DNA of 63,909 nt, counting the filler, from Klebsormidium nitens (lineage: Eukaryota; Plantae; Klebsormidiophyceae): the NCBI GenBank assembly GCA_000708835.1. It is 6 parts of 6 records of this genome, joined end to end, with 100 filler letters (N's around TTAATTAATTAA, not from the genome) between each part and the next. Parts side by side here need not be neighbours in the genome. Positions count along the whole stretch, not along the records: positions 22,183 to 28,070 come from DF238393.1; positions 28,171 to 41,778 come from DF238060.1; positions 41,879 to 61,111 come from DF237938.1; 3 more parts are not named here. The stretch is one strand, 5' to 3'. Numbering within the stretch: the first letter of the stretch is position 1; each line of letters opens with the position of its first letter. The position numbers and the translations under genes are program-made. The notes beneath the pieces are model-generated. The model had not been told where the DNA came from, did no database searches, and worked only from the letters and a program-made list of their open reading frames with translations. This document shows positions 11,575 through 50,124 of the stretch, piece by piece.

Positions 11575-11674
11575 NNNNNNNNNNNNNNNNNNNNNNNNNN
11601 NNNNNNNNNNNNNNNNNNTTAATTAATTAANNNNNNNNNNNNNNNNNNNNNNNNNNNNNNNNNNNNNNNNNNNN
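11575..11674. other. Scaffold gap with TTAATTAATTAA linker
   Basis: 100-nt N spacer with the linker at 11619-11630. The same design recurs at 22083-22182, 28071-28170, 41779-41878 and 61112-61211. Confidence 0.95.
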
Positions 11675-19902: not shown

Positions 19903-21298
19903 GCTGCAATCCCCTATCCACTTTTCTGCCCAACTTCGATCCAGCTGAGCGCAATGCGAGATTATAATGCAGCTCAAGACAGAGGAGCCGTCAAGTTGTC
20001 AACAACTCCGAGTCCTGGTGCTGCAATCGGGCAAGAGGCACAAAGTTGCTGAATAAATTTTGGTGGTTTCGGACGCGGTACTCGACGGTTTGGACGTGGT
20101 TGGAGACTCAAACCTGGTCGGGTAGCCTCAAAGCCCACTAAAAACCTAAGACCAATGCAACCCTAACAAACCGTCACAGGGAAGGGGCGTAACCCTAAAA
20201 CACAGTCAGTGCTTTGTGACTTGACCCTAAGGCTAGTACGAGGGCCCGGTTGAAGTCGTGGTACTAGGTCCGGTCCTCGTACAAATTCCTGGCGGTGGGT
20301 ACCGTTCCGGTCGATCGACGGTCTCGATCGACTCTACAAAAGTTTATTCGGGAACTTTTGTCCGTTTTGCGGCAGTGGCACTAGGTGTCAAATGCGCAGC
20401 CTTGGGCTGCTGTTGATCAGTGTACTAGTAGATATCCTACTACAGCTTCTTCCGAGCATCCGGCTAGTTTTGGTGAAAATATTAGTGTAACTTAGTCAGT
20501 CTGTTGCTGAGTAAAATTAGTCTAATCTAGATGACACTAAAACTGGCAGGTTGGTGGGGAGAAGCTGTAGATACTACCGGTACCTACATAGGTACGTACG
20601 GTGCACCTGGGATCGGGCGATCCCTCGAGAAACTTGAAAAGGTTGCTTACGCGCGTTGCTCGCGTTAGCCATCAAACGGTTCTAATACCATGCTGAGATG
20701 CTGAGGCTGGAATGCGCCATAGCTGCGTTTTGTGAATCTCGAGTTTGTATCAGACTATTTGGTGGGCAGCACACTGCAGCAACCGTGATTTGATTACTTT
20801 GGTCACTTTGGAGATAGAGTGATGTATTCTTCCTACCCGTACTGGCCAACCCTATTCGCACAACCCCCTTACGAATAATTATTTTTTCGACTTTTTGATT
20901 TCGCACCGGGCATTTGACAGTTTCCAGGTTTTCGCAGCGGGGGTGTTATATGTGCTAAAAAGGCCATTCCCCAGCCAATCTGGCGGAGAATCTGTTTCAC
21001 CGAATTACTTGCTAGTTTCGCGAGTTCGCCCCAGGCCTTCGAGAATATCCGAATTTTCCCGCACAGGGCTGAATATAAATATTTTTCGTGCGAATGGGGT
21101 TGGCCAGTACGGTAGCTCACTGACATAGTTCCACAATTGTGTGCCACGAGCCCGGGGTGGCAACTCCCAGTTTTAAAACATGGTATCTGCGGATTAAAAC
21201 AAGGGGTTTGGCCGTTTTGAAACTTTAAAACTGCTTTTTAAAACGTTTTAAAACAGTTTTAAAACGGCATGAAAAGTCCAATTCTCGGCCCAGGACCA

Positions 21299-21410: not shown

Positions 21411-22559
21411 AAGCATAGCAAATATCGGAAAGAGTTATCAACATTCTCGGCTTTAGAAGGATTGTCAGTATCCCCTGATTTCTGAAATTCTGCTCGGTTA
21501 ACAAGCTCGTATGGGGCTCGAGCAGATCAAGTTCTCGCAGAATTTTGATAAAGTCCAATCTAAACCTTGCAGATTGCTATGCCAGTTTATAGCCTGGCAG
21601 ACTCGCAAAATATGAGACCCGGCGCCCTGGTAGGCCCCTCGAGACGTGACTTTGCACTTTTCGATCGGCCGGTCACGCCGGGCGGGCCGCGGCCTGCCAG
21701 GCTGTGCCCGGCTATGTAAACCTTGAGCAGCCCATACGATAACCGCGGCGGAAATTTGAAACGTGTGTGCTGCCCAAGAGTCACCCCCTCGCGGACAGTG
21801 CCACTTCGTCATCCCCTGCTGTACGCGAGCCCGCGCGCGCGCGGAAGGAGTTTCGCGCGGCGGCCGGCGACCGAGAAGATATTTGGGTGGCGTTCAGCCG
21901 TCGACGGCGACGATGAAGACCACCAGTAGTTAGAGTCGTAGATTTGGTGCTAGTCCCGGTTCTGCGGGATAGCGTTTGGTTGGTAGATTAGAGGTGGCGT
22001 TCCGAAGTCTTCGAAGTCGGATGGACCTCGATTGCGTAGGAGATTGCGTATTCGTGTGAGTAGAAGTGTAAGTGTGAGTGTGNNNNNNNNNNNNNNNNNN
22101 NNNNNNNNNNNNNNNNNNNNNNNNNNTTAATTAATTAANNNNNNNNNNNNNNNNNNNNNNNNNNNNNNNNNNNNNNNNNNNNATTCTGCCTTGTTCAAGT
22201 TTGAGCGCCCTCGTTTGCACCCGTAAGATGCGCTTGTCAAGAGTTGATCATCGCCCAAAACGTCATGAGTGCTTCGCTGCGGGGATATGTATGTTCTTCA
22301 AAGCTACAAGTATAGGCCGTGATAAGCACAGGTCTTGGCCGGATCTAAAGCATTAGCGCCAAACGCTGTCGCATCTCGATGCCAGGTAGCAAACAGCAGA
22401 TGCCGGAGGGGACTGGAGAAGGTAGGTGAACACAGTTGCACTACTGCTCGTCACAGCTGAAGAGTTCTCGGAATTTTGTGGGTCGTTCGATAGCGCAAGC
22501 TTCTGGCGTCGAAAGCAACATCTTGACCACGGGTTTAAGGGGGCCGTCAAGATTGGTAA

Positions 22560-23930
22560 CCCTCGCGGCGTCCCGCTGCGTCGATGGCTATGAGTGTACG
22601 CGGCGTGGTGGCTTAATGGCCATCAAAAGCTTCGCAGGATGCCTCGATGCAGATTTGACAGGACTTAGGCTAAAAATTCAAAAGCTTGCGCTTTTCCGTA
22701 GCCGACGTGACGCAGGCAACTTCCAGCAGAGCTCGCGTTGCTTGAAGTCGCACGCAGCGCGCAGCTGAGTCGCTCGCGGCTGCGCGCCGCCTTTCGCTCA
22801 GCGCTGCACGCGGCCCGACGGCAGAGGCGGCTGGCGTGGCCGCGCCGCGGGACTAGCAATAACCCTTTAGGCAGATTCGAGCAAAGGCGTGAAAATTATC
22901 AAGGTGTCATTCATGCAGGGGCTATACGATAATGCAGTAGACTAGCACTGAACACCTTATGCACGCGAAACTCGCTCTCAAACGTGCTTCGGTCGTTTGA
23001 AGCCGGGGACTCCCGTTCTGCTCACTGGTGTCACCAATGATGGCAAGGAAGACGTCGCGGGTCTTTGGCTGCTGTACTGCAGTCAGGATGGTTCATGTCG
23101 ACCGTAAACTGAAGCCGAGCTAGGACTCGGCTGGGCTTACCACTTGGGACCCAACTCGCGACCGGCCGACCATATCACTACTGAATGTAATCGATCAAGT
23201 GAATTATTGTCCCTCGTTACAGGATAAAGTTTCCGCTTGGCTGCAACAGATTAGGCAGTCAGAAGATTCCGGATATTTGTCTCGCGGACGAGCCAGCAGC
23301 TGTGGTCATTCCGATTCTTTCATAGGCTGTCGGAGGCAGAGCAAGTCTGCATTGACCTGCTACATGCTCCATATGACTGATCAGGGTGCACGTCGTGTAA
23401 CGTTGGGGTCTCCCGAAACTTGCTTTCAAGACCAATATTCTTTCCATTTCCAAAATTGTGACACTTTGAGTTGAGGAGAGATGTGGGCAATGTTGGCGAT
23501 GATTTCGGGATCTGGCTGACGAAGCCATTTCTCTTTTCCTAAAGAGCAAGACGCCAAGCACCCGCCAGGGAAGGTGAAAACGGCAGAGCGCTTCGCTCAA
23601 AGTTCGGCGTCGTCTTGGCAGGCCCCATTTGGCAATCTGCCCACTGGTCGTTCATTGGATCAATTGCAGTAGGTTCTGGCCCGCCTCGCTCGCCTCATGT
23701 GTCGTGGTAATCAATGGTCGCTTCGGTCGAGACTTTTCAGGTTGACTAAATACTTGCAGCTTCTGGAAGGTACTCTCGGAACGGTTAACGGCTAAAATTG
23801 ATCTCAGAGCACAGTGATAGATTTGGGGATGCTAAGCGAGCGACTCTATGAGATTATTTTATGATGTCCTGACTAACAAGCTCTTTCCTCGGCAAAGACG
23901 ACCTCGATGCATGGCTGCAACGTTGCCACC
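22560..23930 (-). pseudogene. Decayed spliced gene, copy 1 of a tandem diverged duplication
   Basis: Colinear with 26660-28060. Exon-like blocks (ATLQPCIEVVFAE, STEATIDYH, MGPAKTTPNFERSAL, QPKTRDVFLAIIGDT), a shared AAGTG|gtaagc donor, and stops or frameshifts. Confidence 0.5.
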
Positions 23931-26659: not shown

Positions 26660-28060
26660 AGAGTTTTTGATCCTCGCTGCGCGCGTCCTGCTTCATGAAC
26701 GTTCTTTGAATCGCCAAGATTTGAAGCGGCGCGCGTGGTGGCTTTATGGCCACCAAAAGCTCCGTAAGGTGCCTTGATGCGAAATTAGGGGGACGTTAGG
26801 CCAAAACTCAAAAGTTTTCATAGATGACGTGACGCAGCCAGCCAGCAGTGCTCGCTTTGCTTGTTGAAGTTGTTATCGCACGCGCGGCGCGCGGCTGGGT
26901 CCGAGCTTCGCGGCCGCGCGTCGTCCTCCGCGCTGCACGCGAACGACAGAGGCGGCTGGCGCGGCCGCGCCGCTGGTCCAGCAAGAATTGTGTAGACAGA
27001 CTCGAACAAAAGCGTGAAAACCGTTAAGGTGTCATTCATGCAGGGGGCTCCGGCGATGCGATAGATTGGTACTAATCCCCGTATGCATCCCTCTTATTCA
27101 TTGAATGACGGAACTCACTTTCAACCGTGCTTTGGTGGTTTTAAGTCGGACTACAGTGGTGTCACCAATGATGGCAAGGAAGACGCGGGTCTTTGGCTGC
27201 TGTACAGCAGCCAGGGTAGTAAAGCCTGTTGACCGTAAACTGAAGCCGAGGACTCGGTTGGGCTTACCACTTAGGAGGCGCGACCCAACGGAATCACTAA
27301 CTACATTGGTTAATCAAGTAAATCCTGTCCCTCGTTGGCTTTGAGAAAGTTTCCGCTTGGCTGCATTAAAAGCAGTCAGATTTTGTTTTGAAGTTTGTCC
27401 TGCGCGCGGAGGAGCCAGCAGATCTGGTCATTCCGATATTTTTAAAGGCTGTCCGAGTCGAGGTTGGAGCAAGGCTGCGTTGACCTGCTACAAGCTCCAT
27501 ATAACTGATCAGGGTGCAAGCGTAATCGTACGTGGGGTTTTCCGAAACTTCTATTCAGGACCAGGTTCTCTTTCCACTCCAAATTTTGAAACTTGAAGTT
27601 GAGGGCGTGGACCGTGTTGGCGATGATTCCGGGATCTGGCTGACGAAGCCATTCTCTTTTCCTAGGAAGCAAGACTCCAAGTACCCGCCAGGGAAGCATA
27701 TTGTAAACAGCAGAGCGCTTCGCTCAAAGTTCGGTGTTGTCTTGGCAGGCCCCATTTGGAAATTCTGCCCCTTGCTTTTTTGTTGGAAGCGGTAGGTGAT
27801 CATGGCCCGCTTTGGTCGCCTCTGCATATTGTCTCATGGTAATCTATGGTCGCTTCGGTCGAGCCTTTTTATGTTCGAAATCTGTTTTGCAGCCTTCAAA
27901 AGGTTTGTCTCGCAACTGGTGAGGGCTAAACTAAAACACAGTCGTGAACCTGGGGATGCTACGCTTTCATAATTTCTTTGGCGATGTCTTGTACCAGTTT
28001 ACGAACTCTGTTCTCGGCAAAGACGACCTCGATGCACGGCTGCAATGTTGCCATTCGCGG
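26660..28060 (-). pseudogene. Decayed spliced gene, copy 2 of a tandem diverged duplication
   Basis: Same blocks as 22560-23930, with synonymous differences in the minus frame (ACG/ACA, CCA/CCG, ATT/ATA, CAC/CAT). Runs into the gap at 28071. Confidence 0.5.
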
Positions 28061-28330
28061 ATTGAAAGTGNNNNNNNNNNNNNNNNNNNNNNNNNNNNNN
28101 NNNNNNNNNNNNNNTTAATTAATTAANNNNNNNNNNNNNNNNNNNNNNNNNNNNNNNNNNNNNNNNNNNNGTATCTCAACGGTCTTACAGCGCGCCGTTA
28201 AGATGTAACCGCTGTCGTTTCGCTAACAAGCAGCTAACGAAATCCTGACGAGAACGAGGTTAGGCTTAACCAGACGTAATCGTCACACCTGACAGCGCTC
28301 GCATGCACGGCAACCGACTATAGTACTGCC

Positions 28331-29063
28331 GTGAGTGACCTATGGCCATCGTTGATGGAAAAGTATACCAAGAAGTGTCAGGGGGTTCCGCCCGCACCCC
28401 TTGTTGCAAAGGTAATCGCGCCCGAAGCCTTCCGTAAATACCCCCGCCTAATCGAGGCTTGCAAGGTTCACGCGTCAAGTAGGCTGAGAGACGAGGGATT
28501 CAATCTGAGCTTTGAATTCCAGGAAGAGGGCTCAGAGTGGACGCGTCAGGACGCTCTGATGACGGTGTATACTGCCCGCTACACCTATTGTCTCGGCACG
28601 GCAGACCTTTGTCGGCTGCAGCCTTACACATCTGGCTGGTACAATGAGAAATACTACAGGTTCGAAGACGTTTTGGGGGCGGGCATGCTCCGATTCGGGC
28701 GACGGCCCTACGTGAATCCTCAAAAGACCAATGAGGGAGCTATCTAAGATCGACAAGAGGCACACCCGCTGGCTTCGGGTGCTGCAGTTGCACCAGAGGC
28801 TGGCCCCGGACGTCCCTATCGACTCCGAAGTGCTTCGAGCATATGCAGACGGCTATATCCGGTCGGGCATCGACATCAATGGTGTCAGAGGCCGTCGGTA
28901 CACGCACAAGTTCTTTTTGAAGGAGATGTACCACAATGTGCTCTATCTAAACGCAGCTGAACGCTCACGGATTAAGCACCTCCAGAAGGCTTACGTCTTG
29001 ACGAGTGACTACGAACTGGTCCGAGAAGCTGTCAGGATTGTGATTGAGCTAAGAGACTACTAG
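28331..29063 (+). pseudogene. Intronless virus-like protein with an XPA-C-like helical motif, split by a 1-nt frameshift
   Basis: ORFs 28331-28747 and 28731-29063 overlap; removing one A in ACCAATG gives ...QKTMRELSKIDKR. The motif TARYTYCLGTADLCRL...KYYRFEDV fits the xAxxxYxLxxxDLxxL...YxxxDV pattern. No ATG start in frame. Confidence 0.5.
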
Positions 29064-29211
29064 ACATAGACATAGACATACCATTGTTGAGCACGTGGCA
29101 TTTGGAGGCGTCCCCTATATCATCCGATTCTGACAAGATCTATGAAAGAGTGCTTGTCATCAATTGATGGATTCGATGGATGCAACTTTAGGCGTACAGG
29201 CACTGAAAACC

Positions 29212-29524
29212 TGTTGTAGTGTACGGTACTAGGCTTAGCGGTAGGTTTAGCTAACCGCGGATTGACCGGGCTGACCCGGTTGACCTGATTACTCGGTCAG
29301 AAGACCGACCACGTGGGCCGCGCGCATTTAGACGGCTGGACAGACTGGACACGCTAAATGACTGTAGACGCTCATATTGACTTAGTCTAGACTAGGTAGT
29401 GATTGAATGAATGCTAGAGTACTCCTGAAAGGCATTAGAGATTCTCTGAAGACAATAAAGAAACAAAAGATCATTGTGAAGATCATTCACTTCCAATCCG
29501 CTTGCACCAACGCTGTCTACAACA
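29212..29524 (+). repeat. 5' LTR (313 bp)
   Basis: TGTTGTAGTG...TCTACAACA; differs from the 3' LTR by one 5-bp indel and about 5 substitutions (counted by eye). Confidence 0.96.
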
Positions 29525-29601
29525 GGTTATGGGCCCACGTTAGCGCAAGGAAGTGTCTCAGGAAACAGCCTGTCTGCGTTGCTTTTGTTGGATCAGCCAC
29601 G

Positions 29602-32010
29602 ATGGCGGGATCCGGGGACAAGATCGCGATAGCGCCGCTCGGAGCGGACAACTATGCGACTTGGAGCATTCGCATGAAGGCCTTGTTGGTCCACAAGAAA
29701 CTGTGGAAAGGAGTGGAAGATTCCTCGGCAAACAAGGGCGACTCGGAGTCGGCCCTGGCGCTTCTCACATTGAACGTGCAGGACATGCACTTGGGGACAG
29801 TGGGAGCGTGCAAATCAGCCCAGGAAGCATGGGGGTTGCTGGAAGCAACCTACAGGAGTAAGAACAATGCCCGGAAGTTGCAATTGCGGCAGGAATTGAA
29901 CTCTCTTCGCATGGGTTCTGAGGAATCTGTCGCAGCGTATGTTGCTAGGGCGCAGGACTTGTTCAGGGATCTTACGGCTACCGGGCATGAGATGAAGCCC
30001 GAGGAATTGGCGTGGTGTGTGCTGGTCGGGCTGCCAGCCACGTTTGACACACAGGTCCAAATCTTGCAGTCTGCGGAGAAGGAGTTGGCTGTAGAAGCAA
30101 TACTGCCTAAGCTGCTTCTGACAGTCAAGGCTAGGGTTGGGAGCCGCCAGGTCAAACGAGGAGGCCGGCGCTGTGGCCTTTGCAGCGGGAAAGCGTGGTC
30201 AGCCTGGGTATGCAGGGAACAGGCACTCCCATAAAGGGAATGATCGATCCGGATCCGAAAGCGAGGGGCCCGTGTTTCACGGGAACTGCTATGAGTGCGG
30301 TGAAAAGGGTCACACCAAACGGAACTGTCGGAAGAGGAAGGAGAACGGTTCAAAGGTCATGTTCGGGGTTGCCTTTGCATCTCTGGGCCGGGGGTTGTTT
30401 GACGGAGAGTGGGTGTTGGACTCGGGAAGCTCGCATCACATCTCCCGTGAGAAGGGTGTGTTCAAATCGCTGGAGAGTTTGGAGAACGGCCGGGAGATCG
30501 AGTTCGGGAACAAGGGGGTGCTGAAAGCGGAAGGTGTTGGGGAGGTTGAGATTCTGGTTAAGACGCCAACCGGGGTAGCCCTTGTGACGTTGCGGGAAGT
30601 GTTGTACGTTCCCGGGGCGGCGGCAAATCTGTTCTCAGTTAGCAAAGCGACGGAGAAGGGTGCAGAGTTTGTCTTCACGGAGAAAAAGTGTGAGCTTCGG
30701 CATGCGGGGGAGACCCTCTTTGAAGCCTGCACGGTTGGCGACGTGTGGGTTATACCCAAAGCTATAGATAGCCAGGCGTTCCTGGTGCGGGAGCCCGAGT
30801 CAGCGGAATTGTGGCACAGGCGTCTAGGGCATGCCGGGTACGAGCGGCTGGCTCAGATGGCGTCGAATGGGCTGGTTACGGGGATGCGGGTCAAGCCAGA
30901 GAAGTTTCGTGAGCTGAAAACGGCCATATGCGAGCCGTGTGTTTTGGGCAAACAAACCCGGGAGACATTTCGGAAAACGGAAGAGAAAGACGAGCGGGCC
31001 GGGAAGGAGCCTCTAGAACTCGTCCACACGGACGTGTGTGGACCGATGCCGGTTGCATCAAAGGGGGGAGCTCGGTTCTTCTTCACGGTGCTCGACGACG
31101 CGAGCAAGCTCTCCGTTGTGGTGCCCGTCAAGGCCAAGGACCAGATAGCGGGGGAGCTAGGGGCGGTGCTAAACCGTCTCGAAACCCAAACCGGACGGAA
31201 GGTGAAGTCAGTCCGGAGCGACAGAGGAACGGAGTACGTGAACTCGGAGTTCACGGGGATTCTGAAGGAGAAGGGGATCGTGCATGACACAACGGCACGG
31301 TACACCCCGGAACAAAACGGTTCGGCCGAACGGTTGAACCGGGAGCTAGAGGAGCGGACGCGGGCAATGTTAGAGGATTCGGGGCTGCCCCCGAACCTCT
31401 GGGCGGAAGCGGTCCTGACCGCAAACTACACACGCAATAGGACGTCGGTAGCAGCCCACGGGAAGACGCCCTGGGAAGCCTTTTGGGGGGAGAAACCCAA
31501 CGTGGGGAACATGCGTGTGTTCGGAGCGCGCGCGACGTCCACGTGCCCAAGGCGCTTCGCAAGAAGCTCGAGGCAGTGAGCGAGCGGGGGACGTTTGTCG
31601 GTTACGAGCCGGGTGCGAAAGCGTATCGGATCTTGCGGGAGCGAGACGGGCAGATTCTCGTATCCCGGGACGTCCTCTTCGACGAGACGGCGCGACCGGC
31701 CAAGGCAGCCACGAGCGAGTTCGAGCTCAACGGAAAGGCAACGGAACCGTCGACAGCAGAGAAGGGGGCCGGAAAGGGGGCCGAAATGGAACCAGGGGGA
31801 GCAGGAAAGACAGCCGGAACGGGACAGCCGGCAACGAAAGCGAGGGTGACGGAACGAAGCGTGGGAAAGGTGATAACCCGGGCTCAGACCCGAACGGAGG
31901 AAATCGACCTGAGGGGCGAGCCAGACGACGACAAAGCGGGGGAGGAAGAACCGGTGCCATTCAGGCACTCCATCCGAGAACGGAGGGCTCCGGATCGGTA
32001 CACGCTGTGA
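29602..32010 (+). pseudogene. Copia gag-protease-integrase polyprotein, two frameshifts, truncated before RT
   Basis: gag (DNYATWSIRMKALL, LQLRQELNSLRMG), CCHC knuckle CYECGEKGHTKRNC, protease WVLDSGSSHH, LWHRRLGH, integrase LELVHTDVCGP / RSDRGTEY / PEQNGSAERLNR, SH3 GTFVGYEPGAKAYRIL. Frameshifts near 30133 and 31531. Confidence 0.93.
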
Positions 32011-32071
32011 AGACGTCGAAGACAGGCTCGATATAGCAAGCTGGACATAAGCCAATAAGAGCGTGGGGGAG

Positions 32072-32379
32072 TGTTGTAGTGTACGGTACTTAGCGGTAGG
32101 TTTAGCTAACCGCGGATTGACCGGGCTGACCCGGTTGACCTGATTGTTTGGTCAGAAGACCGACCACGTGGGCCGCGCGCATTTAGACGGCTGGACAGAC
32201 TGGACACGCTAAACGACTGTAGACGGTCATATTGACTTAGTCTAGACTAGGTAGTGATTGAATGAATGCTAGAGTACTCCTGAAAGGCATTAGAGATTCT
32301 CTGAAGACAATAAAGAAACAAAAGATCATTGTGAAGATCATTCACTTCCAATCCGCTTGCACCAACGCTGTCTACAACA
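32072..32379 (+). repeat. 3' LTR (308 bp)
   Basis: Direct repeat of 29212-29524, preceded by the purine-rich AGAGCGTGGGGGAG. Confidence 0.96.
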
Positions 32380-32597
32380 AAACCTGACACATTCCGCATA
32401 CAAACCATCCTTCGTGGTGCATACACATCTGTCGGTGCAGCAGCCTTTCTCTTTGCTGGCTTCATCGCATCAAGTTTGAAGGCCTTTTTTAATCCATTCT
32501 TGACATCCTTTGTCGCCTTCTTCACCTTGCGCCTGATCTGTTTCGGCTTCTTCTTTTTCGATGGTGCGGACACTTCCATGTCATCCGTCATCTGCAT
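32380..32597 (-). pseudogene. Small lysine-rich ORF interrupted by the copia insertion (3' end at 29188-29206)
   Basis: Removing the element and one TSD copy restores MQMTDDMEVSAPSKKKKPKQIRRKVKK...RMVCMRNVSGFQCLYA-stop. Confidence 0.65.
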
Positions 32598-32715
32598 CCT
32601 TGAAACCTTCTCCTTTGAATGGGACGGCAGGGCACGAGACTCTCAGCACGAGCGAGACGAGTGCAAGAGAGATGATCAGCCATGCAGTCTCCATTACATT
32701 CACCATCACAAATTT

Positions 32716-33216
32716 TCAAGGGACACGGGCATTCTTGTGAGTAAAGGCGAAAACAAGCATGATTTTATCGTGATTTGCACTGATCGACCCGTCCTCATTT
32801 TTGAAGTCATCTGAGGTGATAATGTCGCCATCATACTTTCGGAAACGAATTCGCATGTTGTTTAGACGGGCGAGCGGGGGGTCATAAGATGTCTGGCCAG
32901 TGATGTTGTCCCCACACAGGGCATTCAATTGCAGGTAGTCCGTATTAGAATAGATGCCTACTGCGAAGGCATCCGTTTCACCATCTCCAAAGCATTGCAC
33001 GGACCCGTCGAGAGGGTCTACGGAGATTATAACATAGTCCTCTGCTGCTAGCTTTGCAATCTGCAACTGCACGAGTCTGACTGCCGAGATATGTTGGAAT
33101 GGAGTGGATGCATTCGAAAGGCTGACGCGAAAATCAAACGCAGAGTCACTGGGGTCACGCTTTCGGTTATCAATCAGAACGTATGTTACACGCTCTGCGC
33201 TCTTTGGTTCTGCCAT
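32716..33216 (-). CDS. NCLDV minor-capsid/penton-like single jelly-roll protein (DUF5901-like), 166 aa, intact
   Basis: YVLIDNRKRD...FDFRVSL...FQHISAVRL...YVIISV...AFAV...YDPPLARLNNMRIRFRKYDG...MLVFAF matches the recurrent pattern of this viral family (by eye). Confidence 0.7.
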   Translation of the reverse strand: MAEPKSAERVTYVLIDNRKRDPSDSAFDFRVSLSNASTPFQHISAVRLVQLQIAKLAAEDYVIISVDPLDGSVQCFGDGETDAFAVGIYSNTDYLQLNALCGDNITGQTSYDPPLARLNNMRIRFRKYDGDIITSDDFKNEDGSISANHDKIMLVFAFTHKNARVP

Positions 33217-33246
33217 TTCTAATGTACAACAGAGATTGTCTTCTCC

Positions 33247-35357
33247 TCAGCTCAAAGACGCACAGCTGAATTCTATGACAGTGGCTGGATCATGCCTAGG
33301 CTCAGGATTGACGTGCCCGGACCCCCCGCAGCGGACCGCACACTGGGGTGGCCCGTTGATGCTAGACGCCTGGTGAGTGACAGTGTAGCAGACAGAGCAG
33401 ATCGTATGCGCACAGCTACTATACAGGCTCGACAGCTGGTCTACGTCCTCCATACCGCACAGGGCGCAAGCGGCCATCCTCGGCCAGCCGTAGAGAGCTT
33501 CGCGATCAAGCTTGTACCGGCAGTCCCCGCGGGCGGGGTTGGTTGCTCGCAGCTGCGCGTGGATGGCAGCCTCTTCGTGCACGGGGGGCAGTCCGACCGG
33601 GGGGGACTGCATGTTGGCGACCATCGCGGGGAAGACAGCACCCGGCCCCTCCATCCAACCCTTGAGCAGCGCCGCGCTGTCTGCATTGGGTGTCGAAGCC
33701 CAGATGTCCCAGACTTTCTTGATCTCCCGCTCCCTAAGCAGCCGCAAGGACTCTTCGAAAGACTCGGCCTGCAGAGGGCAGAGAAACGGAAATCGTAAGG
33801 ACTCACTCATAAGGTGGGTCGAGTGGCTCTTTCGTTACTAATATCCTGTACATATCGCTATGCATGCAATCTGAGTCTTGGAGGCAAACTGCTCCGCCAA
33901 CTCATTGCACGGTTTGTTTTGATTCCGACAACCGTGTAAAGTGCCCTCCTATTACCAGTTTCCTCGAAGTGTCGCCTGAAGATCTGGAAAGTGGTAATAA
34001 ACACAGAAGAACAACACAATAACGATTCTCACCTGAGGCAGCCACTCCTGCAAACCCCCCTGCGCCACCCAGGCCATTAGCATCCCCCACACGGGCGCAA
34101 AGACTTGCGACTTGTCGTCAACGCCGATCACCCCAAAGAACGGCGAAGTGTCCTCCTGCAGCGTGGGCAGGCAATCCGCCCCAAAGAGGCTGGCCTCAAG
34201 GGTGTTGACAGCGGGATACTCCATGCCGCCCATGCAGGCGGTAGAGGTTGTGCGGCCCGTGAGGAAGAAGCTCGTGCTCCGGTACCAATCAAGCAGCCCC
34301 CTGTTTGCAAGCAGCAGGTCATCATAGTCAAACTGCTTCTCGAATGCCTCATCTTCTAGATTCTGGAGGGTCTCGTCCGTAAAGTCTCCAAGAGTTGCCC
34401 GGCGACGGTCATAGGCCAGCTTGGCCCGGTGCAGCCTCAACTTGGCCGTGTGCTCCAGCGACTGTCCAACCCCCAGCTTGTACATCTTCTCCTTTTGTGA
34501 GGCCAGAGCAGCCCGCATTGTGGGCCACATGTACCGAGGGAACAGCGGCTTCCAGTACCGCAGCCAGGCATTGAGCTGCTCCTGCAAGTGCGTAGGATCA
34601 TTGACCTCGCCTAGATAAGAGTCAAGGCTGGGATAGGAAGAGGTCGGGCAAATGAGTGGATGAATAAAAGTGGAACCCTCCACCTCCCAAATTATCAGGC
34701 AGGGAGCTGGCCACTGGTGCAATGGGGGGAGTGGACCCAACGGGCTTGGATGGACAGCTAGGGAATCGATGAAGATGGAAGCTATGTCGTCTAAAAGCGA
34801 AACCCTGGACTCGCATTTCTGCAGAGCTTGCACGAGGATTCCGGGCCGTGAAGAGCATATGCCAGCTGCCAGCTTGACAGTCTGGCTCCACACCAGAGCA
34901 TCATCCAGCTCCAGTTGCTTCAGCAGCAGCTGGGTGGTGGAGGTGACGGAGGCAGTGACGGAGGAGGTGATGCTCTGCACCAGGGAATCTGGGGACACCG
35001 GTAGGCTTGCAGAGCTCTGCAAAAAAAAGGGGGGCCAATCAGAAAGGACGCAGCACGTGGACAGTGGACTCAGATGGGGATTGCAGATCAGAGCGGATCG
35101 CATGACAATGACCTAACACAAAAGCGAAAAGCATTCACGCAGAATTTCCTATTTCAGCAAGGAGCCCTTCTGCAGATCTCTCACCTCAGCATGCACGCGC
35201 CTCCTTTTCGAGGATGTCGCCTTCAAGTCCTTGGCTTCAAGAGGTGTGGCTGCCACATAGAGCCTTCCCTCACTGATCAAGTACTGCTGTGGACCGGAGA
35301 CGAAGTAAGATTGCGCCATGTGGACGATTTGGATTGAGGGTTGGAAATAACAAATCT
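33247..35357 (-). CDS. Spliced gene encoding a protein with a C-terminal RING-type zinc finger
   Basis: Exons 33247-33768, 34033-35016 and 35185-~35357 join in phase 0 through GT-AG introns. RING-like ligands CALC...CAH..CSVC...CAVRC. 5' end uncertain. Confidence 0.7.
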
Positions 35358-35869
35358 ACTGGCCTGCCTCGACCCACTTTGAGGCGCTAGCGGGGGGTTA
35401 GGACCAACAATGGTGTCAGAGACGCTCGGGATCCTAACGGTCTTCGGCACCTACACTAGCAAGGCACCTGATGGGGTGCCACGTTTGCGAAGAATACAAC
35501 CCAGTTGGACAGTGTCAGCAACCGGCAGGACCGTGTCTTTAGTGGACCGTACAGTCGAAAGTGGGTGCCAGATTCCCGCGGCCGTACAAAATGTCTCCAC
35601 TTTACAGCCAGATGGCACTTTCAAAGAGCGGCACCAACAAACAATCCTTAATCGTCTCAATCCAACTTGTTCAATTCATTCTGGTGTCAAAGTTGGCAGC
35701 CTGTACCAACAGGGTATGGGGTTAACGGCACAGCACACTAAGTTTAATAGTTCCACATCACTGAATTAGATCAGTTCGGGCCGGCAGTTAAGATACACCC
35801 CTATGTGAAGTGGATTTATCGTACGGCTCAGTGGTGTCGAAATTAGTGGAATGTTTATCGATCAACTAC

Positions 35870-36230
35870 AACAATAACAAAAACAAAACCAACAACAATA
35901 AAACATTAACAAATTCAATATCAATAACAAACAGGCGTTGGCCAAGCCAACTCAATATCCATGAATGAATCTCGCGGATGTGGATCTGGCAAACAATCTG
36001 CTAGACTGATTTTAGCCTGCTGCCCTGGCTAGTGGTCTAGCTCGTGTGCTGTACGCAGCACGAGCTGACCTTGGGAAATCGCACGTGCCTGACCACGCTG
36101 CAGGCTAATGGATTTGCGCTGGCGGTAGTAACTGAGCATGCGTACTGCCTCTGCGTCTATCTCGGGACATTGTGATACACTTGATGCGTTGTAAGTTCTC
36201 CCGGCAAATCCCACAACAAACGCATATCTG
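35870..36230 (-). mobile_element. Possible decayed 3' end of a REL-endonuclease (CRE-like) non-LTR retrotransposon
   Basis: AFVVGFAGR...LSYYRQRKSISLQRGQARAIS resembles the C-terminal P-F-x-x-E-x-x-G...Q-R-(I/L)-S-x-x-(L/I)-Q-R motif, followed by a T/G-rich low-complexity tail at 35870-35935. Confidence 0.35.
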
Positions 36231-36278
36231 TAAGCGCACTCTTTTTGGCTGGCGCAACTTTCTAGAAGGCTGAGCCAG

Positions 36279-37850
36279 ATGGCGGGAGAGGGGACTTCAC
36301 GCAAGAGGGTTCGTCTCATGGAGGTGGGTCATTTCACCAGTTTCTGGTTCGGGAGACCTAGCTTTTGCAGATTGTTTGTGGCCATCGAGGGGTTGCATGT
36401 ATGTTTGATGGGTCTGATGGGTCGCTGTGCATTGATTACTCACATGATTATTCAGGTCTTTTGGAACACAGAAGATTGGGGTTATATTAGTTTTAGGCTT
36501 TGGTATGTTTGATGGGTCTCTTTATTGGAAGGGTTTCTTTAAGATAGAATGGGGGATCGTATTCTGGTGCAGATCGTTTGTTTTCCATTTGGGGGCTTTC
36601 ATATGTTTGATGGTTAAGGGGCCTTGAACTTAGAAGACGATTACCTGGTTTCATCAAAAGGATCGCCTGTGGTGTGTACATCAAACCCCCCTGAAAATAG
36701 TTAGGGGGCACTGTATGTTTGATGCGGGTATCATTGCACCCGATTGTTGGGTTTACCCAAAGCTTGGCGCCTCTTACTGATGTCCTTTGATTGTCCTTGA
36801 CATTTGCAGGGGGAGCTACTCCAATGCCTCGGTATGCAGGCAGGTAACACCCATCCATTCCCAACGCCGCCCACTCCTCCTGCGGCATCGGAGTATCTGA
36901 AAGGGATCCCGCAAGGACAAGCTGAGCTGCAGGCAAAGCTGCAAGCTGAGGCGGATCGATTGGAGGCTGAGAAGCAGGCAAAGCTGGCTGAGCTTGCGCG
37001 GGTGGCGACTGAGGCGCAGGCAAAGTTGCAGGCAGAGGCAAAGTTGCAGGCGGAGGTGCAGGCAAAAGTCTGGGAGGCACCCCCGACTCTTGACGAAACG
37101 GCACAGATGTCGCGCTTAATTGCGGCGAGTGTGAGGAGCGTGGACTGTGAGGTACGTTGTCAACATCCCCTTGGCATTTCCTACCCCCGCTCAACTGATC
37201 CTTGGTTGCTACATGTGCTTTCCGATGGATCGTCACTGGACAAACCTTTGACACATAGTCTGTTGGTCAGTCCAGGCTTAGCATGGCATATCTACCATGG
37301 CGCTCCGCTTGATCTTCGATCCCTCCATCTTGAAGTCGCCCCAAAGGGCCTATGTTGAAACAGTTCTTCTGGACGCCTCCCCAACTTCATTCTGCTTTGA
37401 TTCCTTGTAGGACCCGGCGATTGACGATCTGATTGGAAAGACCATCGCCTCGCTGATCAAGTCCTTGCGGGCTGTTTACGGTGAGGAGACCAACTCGTCG
37501 CAGTCTTTTGAGGCCATGTTTTGGGGCCCGATCATTTGCCATGCTTGCATTTGAAAGGCGACACAAAAGCTGATATGTGTTGCTTTTGCTAAATACAGGG
37601 GGCGCCACGGCAGCCAAGTCTGGGGTAAGCAACCCGCAACCCTTGCACACACATATTGTGAACATTGCTGGCAAGCAATGCAGAATGCCTGCAGAATGTT
37701 GCCAATTGTGGCGGACAGTTTTACAACTTTGCAAAGAGCATACTGAAGTGGTTTCGTGTATTTTTCAGGATGAGATGGTGATCGAGTTCGTTCGTAGTCA
37801 CATCCACCAGTTTCTGTCGGAAGTGACCAGTTGGGGCAACCAGAGAGGTG
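36279..37850 (+). CDS. Spliced gene of unknown function with a coiled-coil/repeat exon (3' end uncertain)
   Basis: Exons 36279-36323 (MAGEGTSRKRVRLME), 36810-37151 (QAKLQAEAKLQAEVQAK), ~37411-37480 (DPAIDDLIGKTIASLIKSLRAVY), ~37598-37623 and ~37770-37848 (DEMVIEFVRSHIHQFLSEVTSWGNQR), with GT-AG boundaries. Confidence 0.6.
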
Positions 37851-38542
37851 AACACTTGATCTTTATGAAACTCAACGCTGGTCGTCTTATGGCAAACCGC
37901 AGCACGCCCAGTTTCGGGACTATTTCGAGTCTGATTGTGCATATGAAAGAGTCTTGACTGCTTGTCCAAACTCAAGGATCTTGCAAATCCTTCAGATTCA
38001 GTTTGCTTTTCAGATATAAGTGTAGTGTGATTTCTGCTCTTAAAACGCATCTTCTGTGCATTGCAGGCATTGAATTTTCCTTTTGACTTCCCCGCCTGGC
38101 TCACGCTATGCACGAGGCCAGATCGAATTCTGATACCTTTGCACGCGCCGATTTGTCCATGGCCCCACCAACATCGTGAGGGGCTTTAGCCCCACCAACA
38201 ACGTGGGTAGCTGTGCGTTGTACTACATGTGTCAATAATGTGCTGTGCAATACTGTTGAGATTAACCTGTGCTATGGAGAATTTGTTTTAAGAGGTTCGA
38301 GTTTTACAAACGGAAGGTCAGTTGGGAGCCACGGTAGACAACTATAATTGGACTGTGTTGTGGGGATCGACATGCTCGTCATATCCGCGTTAGAGATCAC
38401 GGTGTGTTTGGACTCACCGAAGGCGAGAATAGCAGAGGTTACTGCCAAGGTGTTACTTGTTGCAGCTGTACCATTAAACCATTATTATCCATGTGGTATT
38501 CAAAAGATGGTTCCCAAATATCTGAACGTCTCAAATCAGGGG

Positions 38543-40244
38543 ATGCATGCTGATTTCATGGAGAAGAGGAAACGGCATTCGACTCTGGCAGAGTCTTTGT
38601 CACCATATGTCGAGATGCTTTTGCAGTGGTTGCAGGCTAGGGCGTGGACATGTTCTGTTGTCGGTAGTCAGGCCATGCAATTTGTGCTGTCGAATGATCC
38701 TTCCGCGCTTGCCACTCCTGCCGACAGGCTTGCATTTGTACCAAATGATTGGGACATCTGGGTGCTCGTTTCAGATGAAGCCGCTGCAATTGACGCTTCG
38801 ACGCAGCTTTGCAATTACTTTAAGGTGCTGCTCGATCACATGAGACAGGACAAAGCGTTGCGTCGAAGACGATTATATACCGTTGCGAATGGTGCAGACT
38901 GTGCCGTGGACCTCACTCTTGCAGACATACCATATCCTGCGCGGTGGACAGGTATTGCTCTTGGCGATCGCAACCAGAGGTACATCGATGTGCAGGTGCT
39001 CGATCTCGGCCGGATAAATGTCACGGACAGGTTTCGAAACGCCTACATAGCACCAGGCACGCCCTATCTGAACCTCGAAGGGTGTATAACTTTTATCGAA
39101 CTCATCAAGTCCAAGCGAAAGGATAAGAAATACAACATTGATGGTATCCGGCAACGTGTTTTCAGTGCTTATCTACTTCGACAGATGGGGACGCCACAAA
39201 AGGTGGCGTACTGGTACCAAGCGGTGGCGAAAACGTTCACGGACGTTGTTTAGCGGAACCGACTTCCTCACACGAAACAAGGGGACCACTGGACGGCTGC
39301 TGCTCAGGTCGCTAGAACATTCGAGTGCGAAAGAGATGGAAGAATGCGAAGCGCGTCTGATCGAAGCACTGCGGCCGACAATGAATGCAACGATAGAGGC
39401 CATTGAAGAGAAACTGGTCGAGCGTGATATAGGCCACATCTTTATCACGGGAGGTGACGCCATGCGTCGATTTAATAGCACCATAAAGGTCTCGAAGGAC
39501 ATCGACACGAAGATCTATGTGAAGTCTGGGCGGCACGTCCACGATGCGTTGGATGTGGCGACAAATCTCTGCGCAAAGGCGGTCACCATGATGATACAGT
39601 TGCGTGGAAGGATTCTGCCGAGGAACATTAAGAAGGTCGTGTGCGGAACGCCAGTGGGCCTCCTTTACACGGATAAAAGGTCTGACAACTTGCAGTTCCG
39701 ATTGCGCTACCTGCCAGCAGAGACGGACGGGAGGCCGCGTCTCATAAGTATCGATTAAAGGATGCAAATCAGAGTGGGAAATATCGAATTCGATCACAAC
39801 ATTCCCGTACTGGATGTAGTCATTCAGAGATCGCCTTCAGGAGGGGCCTCTATCATTGAAGGGGCGAGACCACCGTACGCTGCCCTGAATTGGTTGGTCC
39901 ACGACCTCAAGGAGACATGGGGCTCGAGCTCAAGAGCCCGTCAAAGGGTCTGGGCGGGGAAGAGAGAGAAGAACAGATCGCGCCTCGAAAGCCTCGAAAA
40001 GCTGCTGAAGGCAGGCAAGCAACCGGAAGAGGGCGGTCTGGGGGCAACCAATAAACAGATGTTGGCATACCTCTTGGACGACCGGTGTGCGACAAAGATA
40101 CCGGACTATCTGGAGCTATTCAAGTGGGCAGAGGACCGCAAACGCTACTTGGGCCCCCTCGACAAGAAGAGCAGCAAGCAAAAGGTCCCCTTCTCACAGA
40201 GTAAGCTCCTCGAATGGCGCAGAGAGATGCGGCAGCACAGATGA
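38543..40244 (+). pseudogene. Intronless tandem Pol-beta-family nucleotidyltransferase, NCLDV-type; one frameshift and one premature stop
   Basis: Domain 1: VVGSQAM...NDWDIW...YIDVQV. Domain 2: FITGGDAM...SKDIDTK...LDVVIQ...KREKNRSRL. Frameshift near 39247; in-frame TAA at 39756-39758 followed by the same frame continuing. Confidence 0.75.
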
Positions 40245-40407
40245 CTTTATCGGACGGCAAGGCAGTCACCGCTGGGGGGTGGCTAACGAGCACAATTCTT
40301 AATCTTTGTCTTTGCCAACTCTCTTGCCCTGCTAAGTAGTTGTCGTCCTTTCCCAGCCTTGCGTGCATGGCAAACACCTCCCTGCGCTTCATACGGAAGT
40401 CGGAAGG

Positions 40408-41420
40408 TTAAGGTGCACGTGAAGGCGTTGGGATCTGCCGCTCTCTCACGGGGACCTCTCTCTCCACTACTTTGGGAGTGATGAGCTGCTTCGGGGGCGA
40501 GGGTACAGGGGCGACATGTCGCTTAGGAACTTCAGGCACTGCAGGGGCTGCAGGAATTGCAGGGGCTGCGGGAAGTTCGAGCCTTGAAAATGTGTGCCTG
40601 TATAGCTTCAGTGATGTAGCCCAGAAGAAACCTGCGCTCTCCATGGCATCTCTGAATCTTAACGTGCCCATACCCTGTCTCGCTGGGCCCACGGTCATGT
40701 CCGTCTGGTTGTAGACCAGACCGTCAAATCTGAGGTTTTGATAACATGGCAATCGCTGCTTCCCCTCCTCAAGGATGCCGTTGAAGTATCGTCCCATGAA
40801 CTCGCCGTATCGGACGACTTTTCCAAGGAACGTAGCTCTCTCCAACTTTTGCAGTAACCGGATGATCCCGTACGGGGTCTCGAAGTAGACCTTCCTTGTC
40901 GCGCGAAATGCAAAGTTGAGCTGGCTGCGCTCGACGGCCATAACCACAAATGGTTTCTGAGCGACGGTCTTGCACGTGAACAGAGGCACGACTGCATTCT
41001 GCTCTGTAATGCCGTCCAGAACCCAGATCATGTCGGAGTGACACTCTTCTCGCTTTGCCATGTCCGACGCGCTAATGTTGCTGTGCTGGATCTCGATCAC
41101 GGTTCCATCCTTATTGACAATGTCGGCCATACACAGGACATTTCTCCCGTCGGTCAAGGTGCGGCGAACCGCCACCTGCACATGCTCTTGCTGGCACTGG
41201 TCCTGCCAGGAGCTGTGCCACGGCGTCATGGGCTCTGAGCTGCTCGCATACGCGGTGCACTTTGCCTCGTGGCTGAAGTGGTGAACCAAGACGACGCCAC
41301 GTTTGGCAATCAACTTGCCTTGGCATGCACCGCAGCTTATATTGCCCTTCATTGTATGGCTGTACTCTTTGATGTGTACACGCTCTCCATTGTGGCGTGC
41401 AGTTAGGAAAGACTTGTTGC
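40408..41420 (-). CDS. CoiA-like PD-(D/E)xK nuclease with N-terminal Zn-binding motif and Pro-rich tail
   Basis: CGACQGKLIAKRG...HHFSH...MTPWHSSWQ...MADIV...VIEIQHSNIS...REE...MIWVLDG. The frame stays open upstream of the Met at 41352 (ARHNGERVHIKEY). Confidence 0.75.
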
Positions 41421-41468
41421 ATGAATTGACCGAGTCAAGTCCCTAAGCCTGCCGACGCGCGAGGAATG

Positions 41469-41741
41469 TCATGGGCCCATGCGTGGACGGGTCGGGAGCA
41501 ACTCAAATGTATTCGAAATATCACGGGAGCGCGGTCTACAAAGGGGCACTTGAGGTGCACGTGCGGCGTCATACAGGACTAACAGAGGGGGGTCGTCCTG
41601 TTGGGGTGTGTAAGGCCCATTGAGCGCGATAAATCGAATCTGCACATTTCGATGGATTCGGGCTCTCAACTCATCCATGATGTTGTAACGGCACGACTGC
41701 GCACCGACTTTTGGCTGCGCGCCAAATTCGCGGCCGCGCAT
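41469..41741 (-). CDS. Small intronless hypothetical ORF, possibly viral
   Basis: MDELRARIHRNVQIRFIALNGPYTPQQDDPPLLVLYD... lies in the same orientation just upstream of the CoiA-like gene. No motif recognised. Confidence 0.3.
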   Translation of the reverse strand: MRGREFGAQPKVGAQSCRYNIMDELRARIHRNVQIRFIALNGPYTPQQDDPPLLVLYDAARAPQVPLCRPRSRDISNTFELLPTRPRMGP

Positions 41742-41994
41742 CGTCCGTTACTATACGCTATCGACTTATTTGATATATNNNNNNNNNNNNNNNNNNNNNN
41801 NNNNNNNNNNNNNNNNNNNNNNTTAATTAATTAANNNNNNNNNNNNNNNNNNNNNNNNNNNNNNNNNNNNNNNNNNNNTGTAGCCGACTTTGGACAGCTG
41901 GGCGGGGCCGCGCCAAAATTTAAGAATCGAGTGCTCGTTGCAGGCAATCCCTGCTTGCAGAAACTGATTCGATACATCCCCGAGGGGCTGTCCT

Positions 41995-48652: not shown

Positions 48653-49471
<819 letters not shown>

Positions 49472-50124
49472 GCTGCTGGCCGCGCTGCGCCAGAAGTCAC
49501 TGTTGGCTGAGGACTAGCAGCGTCCAGCACTACAAGCTCCTCCTGTACTGCCTAGCTTGAATATGCTGGCCCCAACAAACCGTTGAAGATAAACATCCTC
49601 ATAGTACAAAATCTATGTTTACGGATACATGGGACAGGGGCTTTGGCCTGCCCACGAAGACCACCACTAGCAGTTGCTACGTGTAGGACCTAGCCTCTCT
49701 GCTCCATTCTCTCTAATAGCGCTGTTGACAGCCTGAGCTAATACCTGCGTAGCATGGTGGGCCGGTGGCAGAAAGTTGGAGTACATTTCGAGCTTCAACT
49801 TGTTCAAGCAAGTTCCATTTTCCAAGAAACTGTGAGGAGCCCAATGCCAAATTTATACCGTTACCACAGCGATTACCAAAACACGTCAAACTTTGCAAGC
49901 TCGGTTCTACTTGATATTGTTCGCATCGAAGAGAGAACACGGCGTTTATTGCGTGATGTTTTGCTTTTAGTGGTTGAACGGCAAGCAATCCGTTGCAAAC
50001 CTCTTGCAAATACAAAATGCTGAAAACTGAAATCACCTAAATTTGTCATCTTCCCTTCAGCCTCAGCAGGCTCAGGCTCAGGCGTTTCAGTCTTGTTCGG
50101 GAGGGGAAGCTTGGCAAACGCATC
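49472..50124. promoter_or_regulatory. Candidate bidirectional promoter between ELP3 fragment and RBM28
   Basis: The two start codons are divergent and 653 bp apart. Inferred from position only. Confidence 0.4.

Follow-up and report, generated by a model that had tools for sequence, protein, structure and literature searches.

The 13,608-bp stand-alone scaffold of Klebsormidium nitens at positions 28171-41778 is very probably a decaying piece of a Nucleocytoviricota (NCLDV) genome, integrated in the nucleus of this alga, formerly named K. flaccidum. An earlier note had read the scaffold as the remnant of an integrated NCLDV in a streptophyte alga, and that reading is supported by two results: a structural match to a viral penton, and the giant-virus distribution of a nucleotidyltransferase family. 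Positions below count along the window, that is, the whole stretch of 63,909 nucleotides that was analysed, and the features discussed are the following.

28071-28170, no strand: artificial 100-nt spacer (44 N + TTAATTAATTAA + 44 N), non-biological
28171-28287, no strand: end of a high-copy repeat by read depth, terminating in CA; scaffold terminus
28289-29063, + strand: broken gene, 5' truncated, frameshift near 28716
29188-32597, - strand: small basic ORF of about 78 codons, interrupted within its last codons by the copia insertion; without family match in Pfam or NCBIfam
29212-32379, + strand: Ty1/copia LTR retrotransposon, internally deleted (LTRs, target-site duplication, Pfam domains)
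32716-33216, - strand: intact 166-aa protein with one jelly roll, predicted by structure match to be a penton like PBCV-1 P1/A310L
33247-35112, - strand: cellular-type gene; one GT-AG intron, in phase (34032-33769); C-terminus rich in Cys/His and RING-like
36029-36328, - strand: candidate non-LTR retroelement, 3' end (by motif)
36810-37957, + strand: cellular-type multi-exon gene; a coiled-coil exon, then three GT-AG introns, all in phase
38654-40244, + strand: nucleotidyltransferase pseudogene of a giant-virus family, frameshift near 39250, premature stop at 39756-39758
40408-41352, - strand: ORF for a CoiA-like nuclease, 314 aa when read from its first ATG (KFL_011110060 at NCBI)
41469-41678, - strand: short ORF of 69 aa, without family match in Pfam or NCBIfam
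41710-41778, no strand: start of a high-copy repeat (bin depth 2,972); scaffold terminus
41779-41878, no strand: artificial 100-nt spacer, identical copy

The extent of 13.6 kb claimed earlier is borne out, and the parent record of the NCBI protein for the CoiA-like gene measures exactly 13,608 bp. The two 'gaps' beside the contig are not genomic: both are concatenation spacers, of which the window holds five identical copies (0 of 100 shuffles attained five matches). For this reason the neighbouring host genes are unproven as flanks; they are neighbours by concatenation, and the question of linkage to flanking host sequence is void for the window. More generally, windows cut from a concatenated assembly display false adjacencies and call for caution. 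Both scaffold ends stop in high-copy repeats, with no junction to a recognisable host gene in the scaffold. In run X1 the bin at 28171-28287 had a summed depth of 29,786, against 15.8 in the unique part, and loose ends from six contigs lay behind 28287 (agreement 0.55). This repeat, which removes the 5' part of the adjacent broken gene, is possibly the end of an LTR, to judge from its terminal CA. At the other terminus the unique X1 contig ends at 41710, and 34 nt of the repeat are found again at 26893-26926, on another scaffold (79%). GC content offers no contrast (53.3% versus 53.7% in the next scaffold), and an Rfam search of the scaffold gave no matches.

A structure model of the jelly-roll protein (pLDDT 74) had 6ncl_a6 as its top Foldseek match in the PDB (E 1.3e-5, TM 0.64), and VIA-align placed PBCV-1 P1 best (Z 13.0, rmsd 3.5, 131 aligned). 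By sequence, the same chain was the sole match at E<=10 among 177,635 PDB sequences, and a weak one (E 1.4). BFVD returned 30 matches at E<=0.001, 21 of them named; 19 of these 21 are giant-virus proteins. P1/A310L is the penton of PBCV-1 (PMC7019647). Like the K. nitens protein, it is a single jelly roll of similar length (PDB 6NCL chain a6; 170 versus 166 aa), but identity between the two is just 13-14%, and the P1 fold is also found in other minor capsid proteins (DUF5901-type). Like NCLDV pentons of the P1/A310L type, the protein stands alone, consists of one jelly roll of roughly 170 aa and matches P1; on this model it is a predicted penton of that type. Thirteen homologues of 160-166 aa occur in other datasets at 61-92% identity, and intact relatives at 85-92% lie on contigs of up to 31-55 kb. 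The assignment, missed by sequence searches, and these relatives are new here.

The transferase has a Pol-beta fold in its C-terminal half and a second GS..DxD motif in its N-terminal half; its GG..DxD motif is invariant in 26 of 26 aligned family members. Relatives made up 27 of 257 candidate stretches in IMG/VR: 13 are named GVMAG, and 12 of the remaining 14 contigs exceed 100 kb. The best BFVD match was Mimivirus AB-566-O17 (E 3.3e-18), and prokaryote genomes yielded no relative (0 of 11 candidate stretches). An intact 540-aa relative exists at 83-89% identity. The K. nitens genome itself holds at least four copies, with those on three other scaffolds (170,327, 16,546 and 7,680 bp) 54-61% identical to the one described here where the two align. 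Megavirus poly(A) polymerase (PDB 4P37) shares the Pol-beta fold with GG..DxD motif (Z 8.7, rmsd 4.3, 183 aligned), a score tied with those of MenT1 (8.4) and ANT(2'') (8.1); the Pfam poly(A) polymerase family matched none of the 26 members, and no PDB sequence matched. The protein belongs to an uncharacterised giant-virus family and is at most a candidate poly(A) polymerase. Two Atlas searches add weak support, because their recognition values (1752 and 2005) fall under the threshold of 2300 and one top transferase cluster is mainly Uroviricota.

For the third gene of viral type, the CoiA_N domain was found with E 4.9e-5 and 23.2 bits, under the cut-off of 26.3. Relatives were recognised in 6 of 28 IMG/VR stretches, the best at 31%, in contigs of 103-148 kb, and a phage search gave no match. 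The nearest characterised relatives of penton, transferase and CoiA-like protein are thus giant-virus genes, the last more weakly. The earlier count of at least five compact ORFs holds (28289-29063, the split basic ORF, jelly-roll, transferase and CoiA-like), and so do their reported lesions: the two frameshifts, the nonsense codon and the copia insertion in the basic ORF. A viral link stands for penton, transferase and CoiA-like ORF; three other ORFs have none. In the gene at 28289-29063, two frames align to consecutive parts of a single protein, P0176 (65% and 58%).

No match to MCP, PolB, A32 ATPase, VLTF3 or D5, the core markers, was found in the 20 scaffold ORFs, so that the earlier statement on missing hallmark genes stands for the scaffold; PolB, MCP, ATPase and VLTF3 are, however, reported on other scaffolds (PMC5294986). 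Exact-pattern scans of IMG/VR and metagenomes found no close relatives on free-virus contigs: none for the penton (0 of 15 and 0 of 98 IMG/VR stretches, 0 of 113 from JGI metagenomes), for the close transferase clade (0 of 86 metagenome and 0 of 47 IMG/VR stretches) or for P0176 (0 of 7 IMG/VR stretches). Since such scans require an exact pattern, empty results prove no absence; the donor family is left unplaced because no close relative on a free-virus contig was found. The IMG/VR records searched for marker genes held none (1 of 5 and 2 of 5 searched), too few to inform. A motif count over 33 loci yielded one match. At locus L001 a DUF5901-like ORF lies 1.3 kb from the transferase (E 4.3e-5, below cut-off); it was rejected as a penton neighbour, with an alignment probability of 0.1 to the penton profile, and because of this failure conserved synteny with free viruses is not claimed.

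NCLDV affinity does not extend over the whole scaffold. Some 5-5.4 kb between penton and transferase are of cellular, non-viral type, and the contig is not intronless throughout, because two genes within 33247-37957 carry canonical GT-AG introns, all in phase. The first matches Prok-RING_4 alone (E 0.029), its 5' end undefined; in the second, introns are read from the sequence at 37152-37410, 37481-37598 and 37625-37768. This segment of 5.4 kb invites a reading as secondary patchwork, in which at least two bits of older viral inserts, still viral in origin, were shuffled with host genes by duplication or transposons. The several transferase copies fit such a history, and duplication with rearrangement is one of two readings given in the published account (PMC5294986). 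Evidence to the contrary comes from P0005 and P0026, homologues of penton and transferase (88-89%): each derives from a 31,205-bp ENA contig, which suggests that they sit on the same one, and this apparent sharing favours one viral block, interrupted later. We regard the patchwork as possible, if rather unlikely.

Single jelly-roll pentons are also borne by Polinton-like viruses and virophages, and an insert of that kind would agree with the VIA-align scores of Mavirus (Z 6.9, first among virophages) and Sputnik (Z 6.2) and with an adintovirus protein in BFVD (E 1.3e-3). PBCV-1 P1 nevertheless stands far above these, the transferase family occurs in giant-virus MAGs and contigs above 100 kb, and the piece, possibly incomplete, shows neither biological terminal inverted repeats nor a Pfam match to pPolB, double jelly-roll MCP, ATPase, integrase or tyrosine recombinase outside the copia element. 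Such an origin is very improbable.

Residence of the NCLDV piece in a eukaryotic nucleus, argued earlier from the copia insertion and its target-site duplication, is supported by further evidence. The 3.2-kb element has LTRs with TG...CA ends at 29212-29524 (313 bp) and 32072-32379 (308 bp), a 5-bp duplication (AAACC at 29207-29211 and 32380-32384) and gag, protease, integrase and SH3 domains in Pfam, with the gag-protease-integrase order, in three frames, that together identify Ty1/copia. The LTR pair differs by five substitutions and one 5-bp indel (98.4% alike). RT and RNase H, which follow the integrase in an autonomous element, were absent from the Pfam matches, and the 3' LTR begins about 60 bp past the last ORF. 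Colonisation by retroelements, in the plural, is only partly sustained: at 36029-36328, adjoining an AAC-rich tandem tract (35864-35930), Pfam and NCBIfam had no match, and a motif marks what may be a non-LTR 3' end. Further signs of nuclear residence are a single 9,622-bp unitig joining viral genes to intron-bearing genes, the end repeats, the GT-AG introns, the divergent copies and the lesions, which recur with 0 differences in short-read contigs (records 2, 8, 15, 22 and 23) from one sample, possibly the assembly source. Runs X5, X6, X8 and X9, with shares of 0.06-0.24, are left out of these comparisons.

A bisulfite-like run (X7, library type unrecorded) gave 177 C>T and 84 G>A against 8 other changes, at a depth of 1.7-6.8 over transferase and nuclease and with a bias toward contigs at least 90% alike. 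Among contigs so selected, and without a control, most cytosines were nonetheless unconverted, a pattern that may reflect methylation of nuclear DNA: record 29 showed 8 differences over 82 C and 73 G, and record 32 showed 31 over 76 C and 81 G.

The unplaced state of the scaffold, its joint to a recognisable host gene being unproven, would also suit a free or persistent virus of the culture that carried host transposons or genes and was co-assembled with the host. Every short-read contig compared, though, carries the frameshifts and the stop, several divergent copies exist in the assembly, high-copy repeats close both ends, and contamination was rejected for the K. flaccidum genome on the same grounds as here (PMC5294986); there is little chance that this is the explanation. 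Fast-evolving host genes or bacterial transfers of non-viral origin, to which the bacterial family name CoiA, the host-like GC and the intron-bearing genes mid-scaffold might point, are scarcely credible: they are already largely refuted by the penton structure matches and the IMG/VR relatives of the transferase, that family had no relative in prokaryote genomes, and NCBIfam gave nothing better than E 0.0066 over 12 proteins, all far under cut-off.

If the scaffold is an integrated NCLDV piece, its history may be sketched as follows. During an infection, viral DNA would have reached the nuclear genome; capture through DNA repair is the probable route, because neither an integrase gene nor a terminal repeat of the insert was found in this piece. 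Methylation by the host, at CG and non-CG sites alike, may then have accompanied its silencing; with selection lifted, frameshifts and stops would have gathered. Retroelements and host-type DNA would have been inserted or shuffled in, the copia element recently to judge from its LTRs, and the insert is presumably inert today. As parts of a free virus, the penton would cap the five-fold capsid vertices, the transferase add nucleotides to some substrate, and the CoiA-like protein cut DNA.

Intact relatives of penton and transferase exist, none of them among IMG/VR contigs in the exact-pattern scans, and they point to a virus lineage that has been active of late and is unisolated. Their closeness suggests that a giant virus, of which we found no described isolate, recently infected or still infects the algae related to land plants. 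Tentatively, a giant-virus lineage of Klebsormidium-type streptophyte algae may still be circulating and integrating repeatedly, a proposal we hold doubtful; if it is true, the relatives supply markers with which to find and isolate a streptophyte Nucleocytoviricota virus. A literature search by title and abstract, with subscription papers mostly outside its scope, returned neither an isolated Klebsormidium giant virus nor the present scaffold.

Known endogenous giant-virus elements (GEVEs) can reach lengths from tens to hundreds of kb, with core genes as their defining feature, unlike the unplaced 13.6-kb fragment described here; those of chlorophytes show pseudogenisation, transposon invasion, introns and methylation. 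In K. flaccidum, contigs with 5 DNAP, 6 MCP, 6 ATPase and 5 VLTF3 genes, grouped with Phycodnaviridae, were reported by authors who knew of no giant virus of streptophytes (Gallot-Lavallee and Blanc 2017, PMC5294986), and giant-virus endogenous elements with methylation-enriched viral genes have been described in K. nitens (2025, PMC12344493). The lineage, suggested earlier to be possibly uncharacterised, is therefore already represented in both papers. The present scaffold, which bears none of the five core markers of 2017, is outside the accessions in the main text of PMC5294986 (5 mentions, four DF23 contigs), and Figure S5 of that paper may list it. We regard it as a further fragment of the published set and a small case of insert decay. 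It resembles the published inserts (PMC5294986, PMC12344493) in organism, in its small, viral-gene-rich contig with cellular-type genes, in its several divergent copies, in a host junction mostly unseen and perhaps in the methylation enrichment of viral genes. With the GEVEs of protists such as Amoebidium (PMC11244446) it shares decayed genes, invading transposons, viral genes interspersed with introns and perhaps methylation.

The feature on the scaffold at 28171-41778 is real and likely viral, very probably a fragment of the giant-virus inserts of K. nitens, carrying no marker genes. The earlier note had proposed a giant-virus remnant, and this reading holds up, on the fold match of a predicted penton and on a transferase family found in contigs named GVMAG. 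The features concerned are:

28289-29063: truncated gene, 5'-truncated and frameshifted
29212-32379: copia LTR retrotransposon with TG..CA LTRs and an AAACC duplication
32716-33216 (-): intact jelly-roll ORF, 166 aa
38654-40244 (+): nucleotidyltransferase ('transferase') pseudogene, three consecutive alignment pieces to its homologue P0175
40408-41352 (-): CoiA-like nuclease ORF, CoiA_N match below threshold

Five N runs, all identical, with TTAATTAATTAA at their centre, divide the window:

11575-11674, 22083-22182, 28071-28170, 41779-41878, 61112-61211: spacers of exactly 100 nt each

Such runs delimit 28171-41778 on both sides, and the pieces between spacers measure 10,408, 5,888, 13,608 and 19,233 bp. 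The window is thus a string of unrelated scaffolds, and adjacency across any spacer is artificial. The gene KFL_011110060 sits on a 13,608-bp record, the same size as the studied piece, and KFL scaffold numbers track size (156, 170,327 bp; 1041, 16,546 bp; 1356, 7,680 bp), which indicates that 28171-41778 is a complete unplaced scaffold. The link to flanking host sequence by which the earlier note would test its call cannot be read from the window: given the identical spacers and the whole-scaffold status, neighbours in the window are not demonstrated flanks. GC content (53.3%) matches that of the next scaffold (53.7%). The scaffold breaks at both ends because these fall in repeats, with summed depths of 29,786 and 2,972.

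Structural modelling predicts that the jelly-roll ORF encodes a penton. Its homologues (13 of 64 candidates, 160-166 aa, 61-92% identity) all stem from assemblies of JGI, ENA or Logan, where they are nameless or 'hypothetical'. The model built from their alignment (pLDDT 74, pTM 0.71) has PBCV-1 chain 6ncl_a6 as top match both in Foldseek (E 1.3e-5, TM 0.64) and in VIA-align run against 48,161 chains (Z 13.0, rmsd 3.5, 131 aligned), where the next rows from other viruses are EhV-201 (Z 8.3) and the mavirus penton (Z 6.9). This chain, named P1, is also the sole match at E<=10 of the jelly-roll profile against PDB sequences (E 1.4), and P1/A310L is described as the PBCV-1 penton (PMC7019647). 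BFVD returned 30 matches at E<=0.001; among the 21 named, 19 are giant-virus proteins, the remaining two being one protein of a phage and one cucumovirus capsid. Atlas clusters are 96-100% viral, Nucleocytoviricota being in the majority, at a recognition under threshold. The predicted penton would presumably be located at the capsid vertex.

The transferase pieces are 83%, 89% and 85% identical to the intact 540-aa P0175, and two lesions break the gene: the frame shifts near 39250, and a stop codon lies at 39756-39758. In a whole-library search 159 relatives passed E<=0.001, of which 8 reached 1e-30; among 20 matches checked by name or source (19 transferase plus P0176), the only organism-named ones were three K. 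nitens genes. With a 26-member alignment, relatives numbered 27 of 257 candidates in IMG/VR (22-33% identity, 13 named GVMAG) and 0 of 11 in prokaryote genomes; no Pfam family was found in the 26 members. A GG..DxD motif is invariant in the giant-virus transferase family, whose lengths reach about 1,000 aa and whose members include:

around 9000-11700 in the IMG/VR loci L002-L004 and L006: giant-virus transferase family members

The best IMG/VR relative, on locus L001, has 2-cysteine-adaptor and DUF5901-like genes nearby. The latter, a small capsid-type ORF (12608-13330 of a 154-kb contig), lies 1.3 kb from the transferase; comparison with the window's penton candidate did not demonstrate homology. 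For P0025, an intact relative, a structure model (pLDDT 86) matches a protein of Mimivirus AB-566-O17 (E 3.3e-18). The C-terminal half of the P0025 model resembles Pol-beta transferases among solved structures with no clear winner, scoring Z 8.7 with Megavirus poly(A) polymerase and Z 8.4 with MenT1. The N-terminal half, barely covered by structure comparison, may hold a second transferase domain, judging from a GS..DxD motif. The family seems to be an unnamed, widespread Nucleocytoviricota enzyme.

Gene 28289-29063 has no demonstrated viral link because its sole homologue (of 37 candidates) is nameless; a demonstrated link is likewise lacking in the case of the small basic ORF and of the 69-aa one. 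The CoiA-like ORF has three homologues among 3,263 candidates, its own gene model included, and six relatives among 28 IMG/VR candidates (best 31%). Its best match, NCBI GAQ92731.1 (KFL_011110060, Klebsormidium nitens), equals the window translation save 42 residues skipped by the gene model. KFL_011110060 removes these codons as an intron, which is likely false since the frame is open there and the homologues P0019 and P0023 retain the segment. The earlier note had pointed to compact, intronless ORFs; between penton and transferase, however, lie two cellular-type genes with four canonical in-phase GT-AG introns predicted from sequence, which would make the scaffold not intron-free as a whole. 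Positions 36029-36328 may be the end of a non-LTR retroelement, judging from a motif.

The copia insertion with target-site duplication claimed earlier was recovered and, like the repeats at the scaffold ends and the read contigs below, speaks for residence in the nucleus. The LTRs of this copia element differ by 5 substitutions in 308 bp and one indel; its coding part comprises gag, protease and integrase, spread over three frames, no RT was found in the element, and it lies about 340 bp from the stop codon of the penton candidate. Relatives of its gag region (29522-29915), ~91% alike, reach a depth of 227 versus 10 for the scaffold copy in the same runs, indicating a multi-copy family in this genome. 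In sequencing run X1 a single 9,622-bp contig covers 32089-41710 with 0 differences (depth 15.8), which ties viral and intron genes together. Further contigs cover the joint on the left side of the copia element and each of the three lesions. Together these contigs rule out simple consensus error, yet they are non-independent, X1, X3 and X4 being one sample, possibly the source of the assembly. The scaffold may have arisen as one viral block, later interrupted, or as a secondary copy put together by shuffling.

Intact relatives at 83-92% identity, present outside the window, are the most interesting lead, and homologues of penton and transferase apparently share one 31,205-bp contig. These relatives might represent a free virus, but the homologues P0032 and P0059 resemble a broken copy carried by a 43,365-bp contig, and scans of IMG/VR and JGI metagenomes found no close relatives.

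Run X7, a different sample under the same species label, differs from the scaffold by 177 C>T, 84 G>A and 8 other changes, from which we infer bisulfite conversion. Its contigs leave the majority of cytosines unchanged: a 338-bp stretch holding 82 C and 73 G shows 8 differences, and a 316-bp stretch inside the transferase, holding 76 C and 81 G, shows 31. This is only suggestive of methylation, the contigs compared being those at least 90% alike. CHG and CHH methylation is described on silent transposons of K. nitens (PMC5890265).

Elsewhere in the window, 22603-23928 and 26733-28053 form a diverged direct duplication (spacing about 4.13 kb, blocks 74-97% alike) occupying much of a 5.9-kb scaffold. 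Two long ORFs at 15980-19998 (-) carry ARM/HEAT repeats (ARM_PUB E 8e-14) and, by eye, an F-box-like start. Ordinary host exons encode a CrcB-like fluoride exporter (7995-9619), the ELP3 N-terminus (49013-49513) and an RRM protein (53897-54757). The 177-aa ORF at 61725-62258 (-), for which Pfam gave no match, carries a motif that suggests a transposase fragment.

The suggestion of a possibly uncharacterised lineage gives way to published giant-virus inserts of K. nitens, formerly named K. flaccidum (PMC5294986, PMC12344493). Contigs of K. flaccidum in which viral genes predominate are described with 5 DNAP, 6 ATPase, 6 MCP and 5 VLTF3 genes, these markers being placed in Phycodnaviridae; that account argues for distinct insertions and states that no NCLDV had then been reported for streptophytes (PMC5294986). 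A 2026 survey locates dsDNA viral regions across 168 assemblies of streptophytes; Klebsormidium is not mentioned in its main text (10.1101/2025.04.19.649669). Klebsormidium is listed among hosts of giant-virus endogenisation (PMC11244446), and giant endogenous viral elements (GEVEs) with methylation enrichment of viral genes are described in K. nitens (PMC12344493).
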